A stretch of DNA of 6,491 nt from a virus, in IMG/VR virus record IMGVR_UViG_2700989228_000001, positions 1 through 6,491 of that record. The stretch is one strand, 5' to 3'. Both the position numbers and the translations under genes were made by a program. How positions within the stretch are numbered: position 1 is the stretch's first letter; every line of letters begins with the position of its first letter. Under the pieces are notes generated by a model. That model saw only the letters and a program-made list of their open reading frames with translations. It was not told the DNA's origin and searched no databases. This document shows, piece after piece, positions 1 through 6,491 of the stretch.

Positions 1-76
1 AGCCTGCTAAGTGATGGATGATTTCGAGGTGTCCGCTGCTGCTCTACGGCGGCTGCTTCGTCCTCTGGATGATGGG
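1..76. repeat. Terminal direct repeat, copy 1 (wrap-around of a circular molecule)
   Basis: 1-76 is identical base for base to 6416-6491. It contains the last 14 nt of the SSB-like CDS (stop TGA 12-14) and the first 63 nt of the next CDS. The repeat therefore continues the reading frames rather than bounding an element. Confidence 0.95.
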
Positions 77-295: not shown

Positions 296-1327
296 ATGTG
301 TGTGCAGCGTCGGCCTGTACCGAAGGATATGCCTACTCCCCTTGGTTCTATCCCGTATGGTCGTTTTTCTCGTTCTGTGGGGGATATCGTCTATTCTTTG
401 GATATGTTCCGTGCTCGGTTTCCTCTGCGCTGGGGTGCGCTGCGTATCAAGTCCGCTGCCGGTGAGTTTCTCCCTTTGACTGATGATAATGTCTATAAGG
501 CTGTCTGTGATTCTATTGTCCTTCCTTTGTTTGAGTTGGTGAACTATGTACCGTCTGGCGGTGATGCTCGTCGGCGTGGTGCCTTGCATTGGTGGTCTTT
601 TGATGGTGTCATTCTCACGCTTTACAAGTATCGTCCCTTCGGTATTCCTGATCCGGTCTATTCATTGACGTTGGAATTTAATCCTAATAAGCGTCTTGAT
701 AATCCTGTGATACTGGCTCTCATTGATCGTATCAAGTCTGTGTGTGCTGATCGTTTTTGCTGGTGCAACACTCGCTTGGACTATACTATCGATGTTCCAT
801 ATCCTATCTCTGATGTTCGGCTACTCTCTCGCAAGGTTGGCAGCACCTATGAGGGTACTTATTACTTTGGCCGTCGTGGTGATTCCGGCTATACTCGTGT
901 TTATGATAAGCGGCGCCAGATGATGGAGGTCTTTCATATTGATATCGGTACCGATGTTACCCGTATCGAGTATGAGACCCGTAACGGTGTCCCTTGTGTG
1001 ATGGATGCTCCTTATCGCCTTGGTGACCTTGGCAATTTTGGCGTGCTGCGGTATGTTCCCATGTCCGATTGGCCTGCGGCTCTTCGTTGCTATGATCCTC
1101 GCACGGCTCGTAAGATCAAACAAGATTGTTTGTATGCTATCTTTTTTGATGTGCAGATTTTTGATGATCTTCGGGATCAGTTTTTTGCTTATCTGGGCTT
1201 GTCCATGGATGATAACATTGATCGTATCGAGTCCCGCCGCCTGGACGAGGCCCAGCGTCTGGCTGAAGCTTCTGATCTGGAGCAGTTGGCTTCTTCTATC
1301 CGTAAGTTTGCAAAGGTTGCAGATTGA
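296..1327 (+). CDS. Rolling-circle replication initiator, Rep_trans-like (pT181 RepC / phage replication initiation factor type), 343 aa
   Basis: SD AAGGGGAG (281-288) lies 7 nt before ATG 296. Motifs recalled for Rep_trans: RLDYTIDV, YYFGRRGDSGYTRVYDK, TRIEYETR. It sits next to the SSB-like gene, as in inovirus replication modules. Confidence 0.8.
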   Translation: MCVQRRPVPKDMPTPLGSIPYGRFSRSVGDIVYSLDMFRARFPLRWGALRIKSAAGEFLPLTDDNVYKAVCDSIVLPLFELVNYVPSGGDARRRGALHWWSFDGVILTLYKYRPFGIPDPVYSLTLEFNPNKRLDNPVILALIDRIKSVCADRFCWCNTRLDYTIDVPYPISDVRLLSRKVGSTYEGTYYFGRRGDSGYTRVYDKRRQMMEVFHIDIGTDVTRIEYETRNGVPCVMDAPYRLGDLGNFGVLRYVPMSDWPAALRCYDPRTARKIKQDCLYAIFFDVQIFDDLRDQFFAYLGLSMDDNIDRIESRRLDEAQRLAEASDLEQLASSIRKFAKVAD

Positions 1328-1333
1328 TTATAT

Positions 1334-1407
1334 TGCGGGGTAGTTTAGAGGCAGAACGGTAGGCCCTACACCTACAGATGATGGTTCGATTCCATCCCCC
1401 GCCACCA
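1334..1407 (+). tRNA. tRNA with anticodon CTA (putative amber/UAG suppressor), CCA encoded
   Basis: Hand-folded cloverleaf. Acceptor 1334-1340/1397-1403: 6 Watson-Crick pairs plus a T1.C72 mismatch. T8 is present. D stem GTTT/GAAC (1343-1346/1354-1357); D loop AGAGGCA contains GG. Anticodon stem GTAGG/CCTAC (1359-1363/1371-1375). The 7-nt loop CCCTACA (1364-1370) places CTA at 1366-1368. Variable loop AGAT. T stem GATGG/CCATC with canonical T loop TTCGATT (1385-1391). Discriminator A1404, CCA 1405-1407. Caveat: positions 33 and 37 are both C, which is atypical. Confidence 0.75.
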
Positions 1408-2765: not shown

Positions 2766-2974
2766 TAGAAGCCCTTCGATCTATTCTTGATTTTTTCAAA
2801 ACTCTTCTTGACTTGGTCATGTATCTGGTCAATGGTCTTGCTCAGCTGTTTCTTATGATCCCTTCGGCTTTCAAGATGCTTACGTATTCTATCGGCTTTC
2901 TGCCGTCTGTGCTGCTGGCCTTCGCCGCTGTGGCTATCACGATCAGCATTGTTTATCTCATTATTGGGAGGTGA
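2762..2974 (+). CDS. Small hydrophobic membrane protein, 70 aa (two predicted TM segments)
   Basis: GTG start overlaps the upstream stop (aaGTGA). SD-like GGTGGTGA at 2748-2755. T-ending codon bias. Confidence 0.65.
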   Translation: MIEALRSILDFFKTLLDLVMYLVNGLAQLFLMIPSAFKMLTYSIGFLPSVLLAFAAVAITISIVYLIIGR

Positions 2975-2979
2975 TTCCG

Positions 2980-3138
2980 GTGACTTTCAACGATTGGCTT
3001 AACTGGTCTCTTTCGGTCATTGTTACCGGTGTTAATTGGCTCCGGTCTTGTACCTTGCTCGGTGTGCCTATCCTGTATTTGCTGATCGGTATCTTTGTGA
3101 TGGGGGTGGTGATTCGTGCGATTCCTTTTAGGGCTTAG
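2980..3138 (+). CDS. Small hydrophobic membrane protein, 52 aa (below the ORF-track cutoff)
   Basis: SD GGGAGG (2966-2971) lies 8 nt before GTG 2980. Translation: MTFNDWLNWSLSVIVTGVNWLRSCTLLGVPILYLLIGIFVMGVVIRAIPFRA. It ends at TAG 3136-3138, the only TAG stop in the genome. It overlaps the next gene by 23 nt. Confidence 0.5.
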   Translation: MTFNDWLNWSLSVIVTGVNWLRSCTLLGVPILYLLIGIFVMGVVIRAIPFRA

Positions 3139-3999: not shown

Positions 4000-4167
4000 A
4001 TGGCTGCGCTGCTTACTACTCTGGGTGAGGTTGTCTCCGCTGTTATGACCTACATCGGTACTATTTGTACCACTATTGTTGGTCAACCCCTGCTGCTGAT
4101 GACTACCGGCTTCCTGCTGATCGGCGGTTGTATCGGTATCTTTGGCCGCCTGCTCTCTAAGGGTTAA
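4000..4167 (+). CDS. Coat-like protein paralog 1, 55 aa (candidate major coat protein, no cleavable signal peptide)
   Basis: Strong SD AAAGGAGG (3985-3992) lies 7 nt before ATG 4000. The ORF-track start at 3982 is a TTG located before and partly inside the SD, so it is unlikely. Translation: MAALLTTLGEVVSAVMTYIGTICTTIVGQPLLLMTTGFLLIGGCIGIFGRLLSKG. It has an amphipathic N-terminus, a TM segment and a short basic tail. The gene pair is followed by a strong terminator. Confidence 0.8.
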   Translation: MAALLTTLGEVVSAVMTYIGTICTTIVGQPLLLMTTGFLLIGGCIGIFGRLLSKG

Positions 4168-4224
4168 TCCCTGCCGTTTTATCTCTCAGGTTAGGAGGTG
4201 AATTTGTAGACTACTGTCACTGCT

Positions 4225-4392
4225 ATGGGTTCTCTTTTGAAGGATCTCGGTACCGTCGTTGATGCTGTCATGGGGTATATTGGCAATATCTGTTCCACTA
4301 TTGTCTCTAATCCTCTGTTGCTGATGACTACCGGCTTCCTGCTGATCGGCGGTTGTGTCGGTATCTTCGGCCGTCTGCTCTCTAAGGGTTAA
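4225..4392 (+). CDS. Coat-like protein paralog 2, 55 aa from ATG 4225; possible 62-codon form from TTG 4204 through in-frame TAG 4207-4209
   Basis: Translation: MGSLLKDLGTVVDAVMGYIGNICSTIVSNPLLLMTTGFLLIGGCVGIFGRLLSKG. It aligns colinearly with paralog 1. The only SD (AGGAGG 4193-4198) is 26 nt from ATG 4225 but 5 nt from TTG 4204, whose next codon is TAG. Confidence 0.75.
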   Translation: MGSLLKDLGTVVDAVMGYIGNICSTIVSNPLLLMTTGFLLIGGCVGIFGRLLSKG

Positions 4393-4398
4393 CCTGCT

Positions 4399-4443
4399 GC
4401 CGGCCGCCGTGCATTATTTCACGGCGGCCGGTATTCTATTTTC
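4399..4443 (+). terminator. Rho-independent terminator after the coat gene pair
   Basis: Perfect 12-bp stem CCGGCCGCCGTG (4400-4411) / CACGGCGGCCGG (4420-4431). The loop is 8 nt (CATTATTT). A T-rich tail TATTCTATTTT follows. Confidence 0.8.
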
Positions 4444-4459
4444 GTGGAGGTGATTTTTC

Positions 4460-4609
4460 TTGTCTGATTTTTTGACTTCTTGTTTCGATGTTCTCTTTGA
4501 CCTTCTTCCTCGTATCGATAATATTTTGATCGTTCTTCCTTTTTGTGCTATTTGTTTGTCGGTTGTAATTTCTCTGACTTTCAAATTGATTCGAGGTGAC
4601 TACTGGTAA
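4460..4609 (+). CDS. Small single-pass membrane protein, 49 aa (below the ORF-track cutoff)
   Basis: SD GGAGGTGAT (4446-4454) precedes TTG 4460. Translation: MSDFLTSCFDVLFDLLPRIDNILIVLPFCAICLSVVISLTFKLIRGDYW. Its stop overlaps the next start as TAATG (4607-4611). Confidence 0.6.
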   Translation: MSDFLTSCFDVLFDLLPRIDNILIVLPFCAICLSVVISLTFKLIRGDYW

Positions 4610-5289
4610 TGACTTTTCTGATTTTTTGTTTTGTCTTTGTTGTTTTCTGCTTTTCCTTTCATTTTCTGACTAAGAAATATATCAATCCTTTTCGTTTGAT
4701 ATTTGTTTTTGGTAAAAAGGGAAGTGGTAAATCTACTCTACTTCAAAAACTTTCTTCTGATTATCTCCGTAAAGGTTGGATAATTTATTCTACCGAAGTT
4801 CCTGATGAAGGTAGAAGTTTTGATGATCCTATGCTTGATGAGATGAATTATATTGATCCTCGTCAGATCTACAAATATAAGTTTCCACCTAAGTCTTGTA
4901 TTTTCATTGATGAGGTTTCTTTGATCTGGGATAACCGCAATTTTAAGAATATGGATCCTAAAGTTGTTGCTTGGTTCCGTTACCAGCGTCATTATAAGGT
5001 TCGTGTCTATCTTTTCAGCCAGTCATTTGACATTGACAAGAAGCTGCGTGATCTCTGTGATGAAATGTATATTGTAAATAAGTTTGCTCGTGTCCTGGTT
5101 CGTGCTAAGCGTATCATTCGCAAGCCTGTTGTGGTGCATCCGTCCCCGGAGGCCCCGGCCCGTATTGACGAAGATCTCGTTGTTGATGGTCCTTTGATGG
5201 CTTTCTTTGGTGGCCGTATCTATGCCAGTATTCCGCATTGGTCTAAAGTCTATGATTCCTTCAAGCCTCTTGATGATCCCTCAGATTGA
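4609..5289 (+). CDS. Zot/pI-like P-loop NTPase, 226 aa, filamentous-phage assembly ATPase with an N-terminal TM helix
   Basis: Walker A GKKGSGKST (aa 35-43). Walker B CIFIDEV (aa 97-103). The downstream motif QRHYKVRVYLFSQS...IDKKLR resembles the Zot-family HRH...D...TQ block. Residues 3-20 form a hydrophobic helix. Confidence 0.85.
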   Translation: MTFLIFCFVFVVFCFSFHFLTKKYINPFRLIFVFGKKGSGKSTLLQKLSSDYLRKGWIIYSTEVPDEGRSFDDPMLDEMNYIDPRQIYKYKFPPKSCIFIDEVSLIWDNRNFKNMDPKVVAWFRYQRHYKVRVYLFSQSFDIDKKLRDLCDEMYIVNKFARVLVRAKRIIRKPVVVHPSPEAPARIDEDLVVDGPLMAFFGGRIYASIPHWSKVYDSFKPLDDPSD

Positions 5290-5340
5290 ACAAAATAAAA
5301 ATTTTTCTCCAATCCTATTTTGTCTCGAAGACGAGAAAAG

Positions 5341-5375
5341 GGAGGGGCTGCCCGTCTGGGCTGCTCCTCCTTTTT
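5341..5375. terminator. Probable bidirectional intrinsic terminator between convergent + and - transcription
   Basis: 13-position stem GGAGGGGCTGCCC (5341-5353) / GGGCTGCTCCTCC (5358-5370): 11 Watson-Crick pairs, 1 G.T and 1 mismatch. Loop GTCT. Flanked by an A-rich run (GAGAAAAG, ending 5340) and TTTTT (5371-5375). Confidence 0.6.
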
Positions 5376-6192: not shown

Positions 6193-6429
6193 ATGACAGT
6201 AAAAATCATCGGTAAGTCCCATCGTAAGGGTGTTTCCAAGAAGGGTAACGACTACGATTTCAATGTCGTGTATTTTGTTGGCCCTGATCGTGGTGTGACC
6301 GGTATGAAGGGTCTGGAGGCCATTCTTGACCCTGTTTCTTATCCTCTGGAATCTATCAATGTAGGTTCTGACTATGAACTGGAGTGGGGGCCGGGTGGTT
6401 CCCTGGTCTCTTTCAAGCCTGCTAAGTGA
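6193..6429 (+). CDS. ssDNA-binding protein, g5p-like, 78 aa
   Basis: SD AAAGGAAGG lies 6 nt before ATG 6193. Its size, position beside rep, and resemblance to recalled Ff gene V protein features support the call: GVSKKGNDY vs GVSRQGKPY, and C-terminal GSL...FKPAK vs GSL...LVPAK. Confidence 0.7.
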   Translation: MTVKIIGKSHRKGVSKKGNDYDFNVVYFVGPDRGVTGMKGLEAILDPVSYPLESINVGSDYELEWGPGGSLVSFKPAK

Positions 6430-6491
6430 TGGATGATTTCGAGGTGTCCGCTGCTGCTCTACGGCGGCTGCTTCGTCCTCTGGATGATGGG
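6416..6491. repeat. Terminal direct repeat, copy 2 (wrap-around); includes a duplicate 5' fragment of the 14-277 CDS (6429-6491)
   Basis: Identical to 1-76. Confidence 0.95.

Follow-up and report, generated by a model that had tools for sequence, protein, structure and literature searches.

The window analysed here, a stretch of 6,491 nucleotides holding an inovirus-like phage genome (IMG/VR record IMGVR_UViG_2700989228_000001), contains a tRNA gene with the anticodon CUA, which most likely encodes an initiator-like tRNA dedicated to a private non-canonical start codon, in this phage UAG. As far as can be judged from sequence comparison, a family of small gut inoviruses, apparently with Clostridia-type hosts, probably uses a natural orthogonal initiation system, in which a non-CAU initiator-like tRNA and the complementary start codon of a coat gene have repeatedly switched together and coat expression would be strictly tRNA-dependent; this would make it the first system in nature to depart from AUG-family starts read by tRNA-fMet. 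Initiation by tRNA-fMet(CAU) at AUG, GUG, or UUG is held to be a near-universal rule of bacterial translation, and to our knowledge the dedicated initiators described for other triplets are all laboratory constructs. Literature searches for tRNAs in inoviruses, for natural non-CAU initiators, and for a natural precedent of such an initiator with a private start codon returned only engineered systems, the closest being engineered amber initiator tRNAs. The relevant features of the window are listed in Table 1.

Table 1. Features of the window related to the tRNA and its proposed client gene.
Feature	Position	Strand	Evidence or comment
Rolling-circle rep gene, 6 nt upstream of the tRNA	296–1327	+	
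tRNA gene, anticodon CUA, CCA encoded	1334–1407	+	ARAGORN, Rfam RF00005, cloverleaf, family alignment
Anticodon CTA (positions 34–36), loop CCCTACA	1366–1368	+	ARAGORN, sequence
First of two coat-like paralogues (78% identity between them), canonical SD AAAGGAGG, ATG start	4000–4167	+	
Strong Shine–Dalgarno sequence (SD) AGGAGGTG	4193–4200	+	6 nt before TAG 4207
UAG triplet proposed as start codon, complement of the anticodon CUA	4207–4209	+	SD spacing, covariation
Second coat-like gene, start codon plus 60 codons (X-TTVTAMGSLLKDLG...GRLLSKG), TAA	4207–4392	+	
14-bp G+C-rich hairpin with T-run, directly 3' of the UAG-start coat gene	4398–4433	+	

The tRNA gene and its genomic context

ARAGORN predicted a single tRNA in this region (1334–1407, plus strand, anticodon cta), and the Rfam model RF00005 matched 1334–1404 along its entire length (model positions 1–71 of 71) at 51.5 bits (gathering score 29, E = 4e-9), bearing out the cloverleaf and the UAG-complementary anticodon described in the original prediction. 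The minimum free energy fold is the cloverleaf, with a z-score of −1.22 that is weak by itself. The compensatory changes for which that prediction proposed to look in relatives were found: in an alignment of 23 family tRNAs, double substitutions that keep the pair occurred in 12 of the 20 predicted stem pairs, and the CTA anticodon was retained in all seven sampled genomes of the 97–98% clade. The tRNAs of the family sit at the same place in the relatives. The tRNA at 1334–1407 is genuine and under structural selection.

The window tRNA has a 5-bp anticodon stem, a 4-nt variable loop, GG in the D loop, the T loop TTCGATT, and A73 followed by the encoded CCA. The label 'Pyl' assigned to it by ARAGORN reflects the anticodon alone. 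The body of tRNA-Pyl has a 6-bp anticodon stem, a 3-nt variable loop, and a small D loop without G18G19, and pyl genes adjoin it; such an identity is ruled out by the anticodon stem, variable loop, D loop, and TTCGA T loop of the window tRNA, and ORF and domain searches revealed no pyl genes in the 6.4-kb genome. The anticodon loop, CCCUACA, carries C33 and C37, which are unusual for any decoding tRNA; U33 is present in a relative, L006 (CTCTACA; related genomes are denoted by L and a number).

The window carries a 76-bp terminal repeat and corresponds to a circular genome of about 6415 bp. Its gene content is inovirus-like, with Zot, an HTH repressor, an RstB-like protein, and a protein that weakly matches Rep_trans. 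The rep stop (1327) and the next ORF (1431) are 103 nt apart, and the tRNA lies in this gap, about 20 nt upstream of the next SD and in the same orientation. Transcription from the sole promoter-like site nearby (1307–1334) would begin within the tRNA, which is probably matured from a polycistronic transcript running from rep into the structural genes. The 15 ORFs end with TGA (nine), TAA (five), or TAG (one, the small ORF 2971–3138), and none of them contains an in-frame TAG. This stop codon tally, like the gap length and the features U1.C72, C3:G70, C33, C37, TTCGATT, A73, and CCA reported earlier, was reproduced from the sequence. Searches with Rfam found no known RNA elements, including T-box, near the coat genes; matches to RsaE and sau-5971 at 5285–5374 were far below threshold and overlap a dif-like site and a hairpin.

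No match was obtained when the genome was compared with the phage collection by megablast or when IMG/VR was searched for the exact tRNA sequence, and Rep-based scans of IMG/VR gave no relatives. The relatives were obtained by protein search, by scans of metagenomes and genomes, and from Zot relatives in GenBank. The earlier remark that inoviruses are not known to carry tRNAs held true, and in GenBank inovirus records tRNAs are present but unannotated; the annotation of PQ006129, for example, includes neither the tRNA nor the coat gene.

Initiator-like features of the tRNA

The acceptor stem of the window tRNA consists of the mismatch U1.C72 and the pairs G2:C71, C3:G70, G4:C69, G5:C68, G6:C67, and G7:C66, followed by A73. 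Pairs 2–6:67–71 (GCGGG/CCCGC) are invariant in all 23 family tRNAs, giving the acceptor pattern NGCGGG...CCCGCNNCCA, in contrast to the free covariation of the other stems. In E. coli, the initiator tRNA likewise combines a GCGGGG/CCCCGC stem with a 1x72 mismatch and A73; its sequence was found in 5426 of 5426 genomes with a median of four copies. Across the family lineages, the 1:72 pair is a mismatch (U.C, A.A, C.U, or G.A) or U-A and never G:C or C:G. Among control phage tRNAs, those with non-CAT anticodons have G:C or C:G at 1:72 in 62% of cases and a mismatch in 4.6%, while a mismatch occurs in 57% of those with CAT. Of the IMG/VR tRNAs sharing the 3' T-arm and acceptor pattern of the family, 57 out of 64 are tRNA-Met(CAT). 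The formyltransferase determinant comprises the 1x72 mismatch together with pairs 2:71 and 3:70, and this mismatch disfavours EF-Tu (PMC6393288). The 1:72 mismatch, listed as atypical in the original prediction, and A73 and C3:G70, noted there as not fitting GlnRS recognition, are acceptor features of bacterial initiator tRNAs and argue against the role of a read-through suppressor.

The likeness is less strict elsewhere in the molecule. The anticodon stem has A29:U41, G30:C40, and G31:C39 (au/GC/GC), that is, two of the three G:C pairs of the strict 3GC rule; au/GC/GC occurs naturally among initiators, and in E. coli the central pair G30:C40, the essential one, is sufficient (PMC5389676). Among the 23 family tRNAs, G30:C40 is present in 19, the full 3GC set in L126 only, and many members deviate further at pairs 29–31:39–41. 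The D stem of the window tRNA has the elongator-like pair U11:A24 and lacks A11:U24, which is the rule in bacterial initiator tRNAs. Judged by its bases, the tRNA is initiator-like only in the acceptor stem and, in part, in the anticodon stem. It is not a tRNA-fMet, given the anticodon CUA instead of CAU; what is proposed is that it works like an initiator, not that it belongs to that class.

The proposed UAG start site of the second coat-like gene

Among the 33 TAG triplets on the plus strand, only TAG 4207 is preceded by a strong, correctly spaced SD and followed by a substantial ORF. The GGAGG core of this SD lies 8 nt from the TAG, the SD itself lies 24 nt before the ATG (4225) used by ORF callers, and the first coat-like paralogue serves as an internal control for normal SD-to-start spacing. 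The same arrangement is kept in L005, L006, L007, and L024. In the CUA clade, an in-frame TTG (4204 in the window) is located directly 5' of the TAG in five of five genomes and an ATG is located six codons downstream, so that on paper there are two alternative routes to the protein.

The predicted product is small, with a single membrane span and a basic C-terminus, the architecture known from inovirus major coat proteins. The coat-like proteins of the window had no match among the Pfam and PHROG families, and the homologue in L040 matched phrog_2186, 'virion structural protein' (E = 7.7e-6). The architecture and the position of the gene suggest a coat role for its product. The hairpin downstream is likely the terminator of a highly expressed coat transcript.

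The original prediction of an amber suppressor was correct as to a real tRNA with the anticodon CUA that pairs with UAG, but its read-through elongator role found no in-frame UAG client. The sole SD-preceded TAG sits exactly where a coat-like gene would be expected to start, and the homologous codon in relatives covaries with their anticodons. The tRNA most likely reads UAG as a start codon and not as a stop to be suppressed.

Covariation of anticodon and proposed start codon in related phages

A homologous tRNA was found in almost every relative, with the anticodon UGU, CGU, AGU, UUC, CUC, CUG, GAG, or CUA; GAG is that of L035. In all 30 genomes tabulated, the complement of the genome's own anticodon occurs in frame after the strong SD of a coat-like gene, the anticodon/codon pairs being CTA/TAG, TGT/ACA, CGT/ACG, AGT/ACT, TTC/GAA, CTC/GAG, CTG/CAG, and GAG/CTC. 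In each of the 26 genomes measured, this codon lies 7–9 nt after the SD core, while complements of the other anticodons were found at this distance in only one of 182 comparisons. Both partners have switched together between close relatives: L039 (TTC/GAA) and L029 (CTC/GAG) show 9% Rep divergence, the mature coat proteins of L001 (CTC/GAG) and L021 (CTG/CAG) are identical, and L010 (CGT/ACG) is nested among TGT/ACA genomes.

In L126, L040, L051, L099, and L097, no ATG, GTG, or TTG occurs from the in-frame stop upstream down to the special codon, nor for 12–39 codons past it. In L010, L011, and L018, an in-frame TAA occurs a few codons upstream of the special codon (the third codon back). Since special codons such as ACG and GAG are ordinary sense codons, a dedicated tRNA would be needed for them only at the P site. 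An IMG/VR contig carrying a tRNA-Gln(CTG), L108, was left out as a bacterial fragment, and L122 ends right after its tRNA. For a low-confidence second tRNA-like call in L031 (anticodon GAG), no client gene was found.

Alternative explanations

It appears unlikely that the tRNA is an elongator amber suppressor, brought by EF-Tu to the A site to insert an amino acid at UAG, whether at stops of host and phage genome-wide or locally, at TAG 4207, once translation has started at TTG 4204. The anticodon CUA and the TTG found directly before the TAG throughout the CUA clade are consistent with it, and TAG stops are fewer in this clade than in its sister clades, a 70-aa ORF and zot ending with TGA here and with TAG in several relatives. 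In E. coli, moreover, initiator-type CUA tRNA that has not been formylated can leak into elongation (PMC6393288). However, the tRNA has a 1:72 mismatch unfavourable to EF-Tu and neither U33 nor a purine at position 37, and no phage ORF offers an in-frame TAG. The TAG of ORF 2971–3138 is common to clades whose tRNA reads Glu or Thr codons; programmed read-through of this ORF, which would add 21 aa, was rejected since its TAG also occurs in clades without a CUA tRNA. In the start region, just 5 nt separate TTG 4204 from the SD core, whereas the TAG is at the family-typical 8 nt, and in most relatives the special codon has no canonical start in front of it. Finally, the special codons of the relatives are sense codons that need no suppressor and yet covary with the anticodon.

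It is still less probable that this is an ordinary phage tRNA without a client gene, supplementing codons or replacing host tRNAs cut by anticodon nucleases, with CUA being a neutral or decaying G36A mutant of Gln(CUG). The window tRNA does share 'UA' at positions 8–9 and the loop C-U/C-C-U-N-C-A with the CUG tRNAs of L021 and L031, differing from them at position 36, and its odd anticodon-loop bases recall nuclease-evading phage tRNAs (PMC10264068). Codon supplementation was rejected after a comparison of Thr, Glu, and Gln codon usage, in which the slightly higher ACA usage of Thr-tRNA phages was a weak and confounded signal and phages with Thr(UGU/CGU) preferred ACT. A tRNA of this kind also leaves unexplained the perfect complementarity to the SD-proximal codon in 30 genomes, the invariance of the initiator-type acceptor stem across anticodon classes, the coat ORFs that have no canonical start, and the retention of CTA in the sampled clade along with the SD–TAG arrangement. 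The position of the gene, close behind rep, shortly before the next SD, in the same orientation, and with no usable promoter of its own, would equally suit a tRNA-like processing signal, at which RNase P and 3' processing split rep from the structural mRNA and the anticodon is irrelevant. Such a role could coexist with initiation, but as the whole explanation it is slightly less probable again, because positions 35–36 of the anticodon are conserved within clades while position 34 flips, and the anticodon tracks a codon up to 2.8 kb away, neither of which is expected of a neutral anticodon. The chance that the gene is a tRNA-derived attP for integration into a host tRNA gene is negligible, although many integrative elements, some inoviruses included, target tRNA genes (PMC8530359). 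Comparison of the prophages L015, L017, and L009 with the circular L019 placed the junction at a dif-like core (ATTGAACAAAATTTACAT) some 2.4 kb away from the tRNA and thereby refuted the attP reading for the relatives examined; the tRNA is internal to the prophage, circular genomes carry it complete, and the window has a matching dif-like site at 5285–5316.

Proposed mechanism and its implications

In the proposed private initiation system, an initiator-type tRNA with its anticodon changed from CAU to CUA would have the second coat-like gene as its client. The tRNA would be cut from the rep-to-structural transcript and charged by a host synthetase, possibly with Gln by analogy with the engineered amber initiator of E. 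coli. The unpaired 1:72 position together with G2:C71, C3:G70, and G4:C69 would then direct it to formylation, IF2, and the P site rather than to EF-Tu. On the mRNA, the SD would position the 30S subunit so that UAG 4207 lies in the P site, where it would be read by this tRNA only; the arrangement itself is observed. Translation of this coat paralogue would hinge on the phage's own tRNA. Related phages would use the same device with the private starts ACA, ACG, ACU, GAA, GAG, CAG, and CUC, both partners evolving together.

If this proves true, naturally diversified pairs of initiator-like tRNAs and private start codons would mean that the start signal itself is evolvable, and the natural first guess that a CUA tRNA serves stop-codon read-through would be corrected. 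It would explain why coat genes and tRNAs have been missed in annotations of these phages, such as that of PQ006129, and would provide ready-made orthogonal initiation parts for synthetic biology. It also raises two questions, namely the identity of the first amino acid of the coat protein and the reason for making one of two coat paralogues depend on a phage tRNA, which could be a lysogeny fail-safe, dosage control, or the privatising of expression against co-infecting relatives.

Comparison with known systems

Phages of the crAss-like and Lak groups with recoded stop codons also have tRNAs complementary to a stop codon, but these suppressors are elongators that serve many in-frame stops in late genes of large genomes. 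In contrast, the window phage has a 6.4-kb genome without in-frame TAGs, an initiator-type acceptor stem, and a single codon at a start position.

The amber initiator derived from E. coli metY (CUA) and other anticodon-mutant initiators resemble the window tRNA in the 1x72 mismatch, G2:C71, C3:G70, and the non-CAU anticodon, and in their client genes, too, the cognate non-AUG triplet, which may be UAG, comes after an SD. The engineered tRNAfMet(CUA) initiates efficiently at UAG in E. coli with formyl-Gln (10.1101/524249; PMC11744186). These initiators are laboratory constructs with the whole tRNAfMet body, including the three G:C pairs, whereas the system proposed here would be natural and phage-encoded and would comprise at least eight anticodon/start-codon pairs. 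In the PhiX174 biocontainment design of Tsoumbris, Vincent and Jaschke (bioRxiv 10.1101/2024.07.29.605542), capsid translation of a single-stranded DNA phage is likewise conditional on an amber initiator, phages with TAG starts on capsid genes growing only when this tRNA is supplied. That design is synthetic and takes the tRNA from the host strain, whereas the window phage carries its own and would have only one of its two coat paralogues on the private codon.

Natural relatives of the individual tRNA features retain CAU. The au/GC/GC initiators of alpha-proteobacteria and some mycoplasmas have the same A29:U41, G30:C40, and G31:C39 as the window tRNA (PMC5389676) but are cellular tRNAfMet. 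The tRNA-Met(CAT) genes of large tailed phages, initiator-type ones included, share the T-arm and acceptor 3' pattern and frequently the 1:72 mismatch; unlike the window tRNA, they read AUG. The best BLAST matches of the window tRNA in phage records were tRNA-Met genes.

A tRNA gene downstream of rep in the phage family

ARAGORN called a single tRNA in the window, with anticodon cta, and the Rfam tRNA model RF00005 matched it over the full model length with a score of 51.5 bits (gathering score 29, E=4e-9). The tRNA and anticodon of the original prediction were therefore borne out, and its structural details were reproduced: U1.C72, C3:G70, A73, the encoded CCA, the anticodon loop CCCUACA (C33, C37), the T loop TTCGATT, the 103-nt gap around the gene, and the stop codon tally of the window ORFs (9 TGA, 5 TAA and 1 TAG). 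A tRNA-Pyl identity was rejected on the cloverleaf structure.

An exact 76-bp terminal repeat indicates that the window is a complete, circularly closed genome of ~6415 bp; 55-bp assembler overlaps occur in several relatives. Its gene content is inovirus-like (Zot-type ATPase, weak Rep_trans match, RstB-like protein, HTH repressor). The G+C content is 45%, versus 53–59% in loci of integrated relatives (prophage and host flank), and codon preference is T-rich, with ACT making up ~58% of Thr codons.

Relatives' loci (L numbers) were gathered from genome, metagenome, and assembly collections, and 65 Rep homologues were found, mostly on contigs of ~6–7 kb. Nearly all relatives, several of them circular contigs, carry a tRNA directly 3' of rep, and its anticodon varies. 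CTA is conserved in all seven genomes of the 97–98% clade (the CUA clade: the window, L005–L007, and L024–L026), while others carry Thr TGT/CGT, Glu TTC/CTC, Gln CTG, or, in L035, a GAG-type anticodon. Among more distant GenBank inoviruses, relatives by Zot, such tRNAs are present but unannotated in three of the 14 records retrieved. A literature search revealed no description of tRNAs in inoviruses, and in a study of gut inoviruses (PMC8530359) tRNA genes come up solely in host prediction and as targets of integration.

Coordinates of features in the window and related genomes
Feature	Genome	Position	Remarks
Terminal repeat	window	1–76, 6416–6491	
tRNA	window	1334–1407 (+)	anticodon CTA
52–55-aa ORF	window	2971–3138	
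First coat-like gene	window	4000–4167	
Shine–Dalgarno (SD) AGGAGGTG	window	4193–4200 (+)	followed by AATTTG, then TAG
Second coat-like gene	window	4207–4392	
Proposed UAG start codon	window	4207–4209 (+)	in frame with 60 further codons; TAA 4390–4392
Gene callers' ATG start	window	4225	24 nt beyond SD
dif-like site GATTGAACAAAATAAAAATTTTTCTCCAATCC	window	5285–5316	
dif-like site	L019	778–810	
dif-like site	L015	6332 and 12796	
Unannotated tRNA	L040 (PQ006129.1)	4409–4482	anticodon CTG; titled "complete genome"
CAG-start virion-protein gene	L040 (PQ006129.1)	4511–4717	68 codons; right after tRNA(CTG); unannotated
Unannotated tRNA	L041 (MT135284.1)	2936–3009	titled "complete genome"
Unannotated tRNA	L051 (MT135301.1)	4278–4351	titled "complete genome"
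tRNA	L035	2413–2488	8-nt anticodon loop GTGAGTCG; client codon CTC
Second tRNA-like element	L031	2415–2490	anticodon GAG; 8-bp acceptor; just 5' of CTG tRNA
Family-type tRNA	L122	13858–13931	anticodon CAG
Family-type tRNA	L126	1931–2005	
GAG-start coat gene	L126	2033	matches CTC tRNA
Bacterial RNase P RNA	L002	14049–14307	adjoins prophage region

Covariation of anticodon and proposed start codon

The + strand of the window has 33 TAG triplets, all of which were screened; the one at 4207 is the only one with a strong, correctly spaced SD sequence and a substantial downstream ORF. It opens the second of two tandem coat-like genes (so named from architecture and position) that are 78% identical; a strong hairpin and a T-run lie 3' of this second gene. 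The first paralogue has an ordinary SD with ATG 7 nt later; the private start codon is proposed for the second copy only. Triplet counts on the + strand are strongly biased, with TAG occurring 33 times versus CTA 109 times, and TGA 194 times.

In the relatives, the homologous (client) gene has the same SD, followed at 7–9 nt by an in-frame triplet exactly complementary to the genome's own anticodon. In an objective SD alignment, the own-anticodon codon was found at this spacing in 26 of 26 genomes, and codons of other anticodons in 1 of 182 comparisons. On the Rep-based tree, anticodon and codon switch together even where genomes are closely related: between L039 (TTC/GAA) and L029 (CTC/GAG), with a Rep divergence of 9%, and between L001 (CTC/GAG) and L021 (CTG/CAG), which share an identical mature coat sequence, while L010 (CGT/ACG) sits nested among TGT/ACA genomes. 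The peptide joining the special codon to the conserved body (TTVTA, TEVTA, ATTTA, TTA) is conserved, its length shifting by whole codons. In L126, L040, L051, L099, and L097, no ATG, GTG, or TTG occurs from the preceding in-frame stop up to the special codon, nor for 12–39 codons past it, and in L010, L011, and L018 a TAA lies at the third codon back. The client gene is immediately 3' of the tRNA in L021, L031, L040, L001, and L126; the L040 product matches phrog_2186 (E=7.7e-6), and neither this gene nor the tRNA is annotated in the GenBank record.

Anticodons and in-frame triplets following the SD of the client gene
Anticodon	Triplet	Genomes
CTA	TAG	window, L005–L007, L024
TGT	ACA	L009, L012, L015, L019, L036
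CGT	ACG	L010, L011, L018, L032, L033, L051
AGT	ACT	L041
TTC	GAA	L020, L030, L039
CTC	GAG	L027, L029, L001, L126
CTG	CAG	L021, L031, L040, L097, L099
GAG	CTC	L035

L122 and L126 are 37-kb IMG/VR viral contigs; the L122 tRNA would pair with CTG, and the contig stops before any client gene. The second tRNA-like element of L031 was called by ARAGORN, not by Rfam, and no client CTC start was found for it in L031.

Initiator-like features of the tRNA

When 23 tRNAs of the family were aligned, the cloverleaf was upheld, 12 of its 20 pairs showing compensatory changes. All 23 share the same acceptor pairs 2-6:67-71 (GCGGG/CCCGC), and pair 1:72 is in every lineage either a mismatch (U.C, A.A, C.U, G.A) or U-A, never G:C. 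Among control phage tRNAs, those with non-CAT anticodons have G:C or C:G at this position in 62% and a mismatch in 4.6%, while 57% of CAT tRNAs are mismatched. An IMG/VR scan for the family pattern of T-arm and acceptor 3' strand returned tRNA-Met(CAT) in 57 of 64 cases, and in phage records it is tRNA-Met genes that the window tRNA matches best by BLAST. The E. coli initiator tRNA, whose sequence is present in every one of 5426 E. coli genomes (median four copies), has the same GCGGGG/CCCCGC stem, 1x72 mismatch, and A73. The determinant recognised by formyltransferase consists of the 1x72 mismatch plus pairs 2:71 and 3:70; the same mismatch is unfavourable for EF-Tu (PMC6393288). The anticodon stem of the window tRNA (A29:U41/G30:C40/G31:C39) matches the natural "au/GC/GC" initiator variant, in which the middle G30:C40 pair is essential (PMC5389676). 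Other initiator marks are missing: the window tRNA lacks a CAU anticodon and has U:A at pair 11:24. Many relatives depart further from the initiator at pairs 29-31:39-41.

Possible role of the tRNA

For ACG, GAA, CAG, and other sense codons of this kind, the host already has elongator tRNAs, so a dedicated, exactly complementary tRNA would be needed only at the P site during initiation. Taken together, the SD spacing, the perfect covariation, the fact that several genomes lack any canonical start, and the initiator-type acceptor make it likely that the window tRNA is a phage-encoded initiator-like tRNA serving UAG as a private start codon; our confidence in this reading is lower than in the covariation observed across the family. 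The tRNA would be expressed, processed, charged, and formylated, and would be used at the P site. Laboratory results demonstrate that such a mechanism is feasible: tRNAfMet(CUA) initiates at UAG with formyl-Gln (10.1101/524249; PMC11744186), many initiator tRNA anticodon mutants start at cognate triplets (PMC11744186), and PhiX174 with TAG start codons on capsid genes requires an amber initiator tRNA (10.1101/2024.07.29.605542). A literature search for natural non-CAU initiators returned engineered systems only; the phage system, natural and known here from sequence, would therefore be categorically new, although its mechanism was anticipated by synthetic amber-initiator work.

The original prediction of an amber suppressor was correct as to the CUA anticodon, but a read-through role explains neither the family-wide pattern nor the 1:72 mismatch. 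An elongator suppressor is an unlikely alternative; what speaks for it is mainly an in-frame TTG immediately 5' of the TAG in the CUA clade, and that clade's smaller number of TAG stops compared with its sister clades. Codon supplementation, for which the codon-usage signal is weak, and an anti-nuclease role both leave the covariation of anticodon and codon unexplained. A role in RNA processing may coexist with initiation, but does not account for the conservation of the anticodon.

As to individual stop codons, a 70-aa ORF ends in TAG in five of five Glu-tRNA genomes examined and zot does so in L039, L020, and L019, while in the CUA clade each of the two has a TGA stop; the small 52–55-aa ORF (window, L020, L029, L030, L033, L039) keeps its TAG whatever tRNA is carried. 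Genomes with a CUA tRNA may tend to avoid TAG as a stop, although the numbers are too small to tell.

Integration site

Junctions were mapped by comparing circular L019 with the integrated copies L015, L017, and L009. Prophage and host meet at a dif-like core, ATTGAACAAAATTTACAT; the tRNA is internal to the prophage, ~2.4 kb away from this junction, and was rejected as attP on these grounds. The host site reconstructed in the relatives is an inverted repeat, ATTGAACAAAA-TTTACA-TTTTGTTCAAT. The shape of the site suggests that these phages probably integrate via host Xer recombination at dif, without a phage integrase. MAG labels of integrated relatives (L001–L003) are Oscillospiraceae, Clostridiales (RUG294), and Flexilinea. 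Sub-threshold Rfam matches to RsaE and sau-5971 fall on the dif-like site of the window and the adjoining hairpin.
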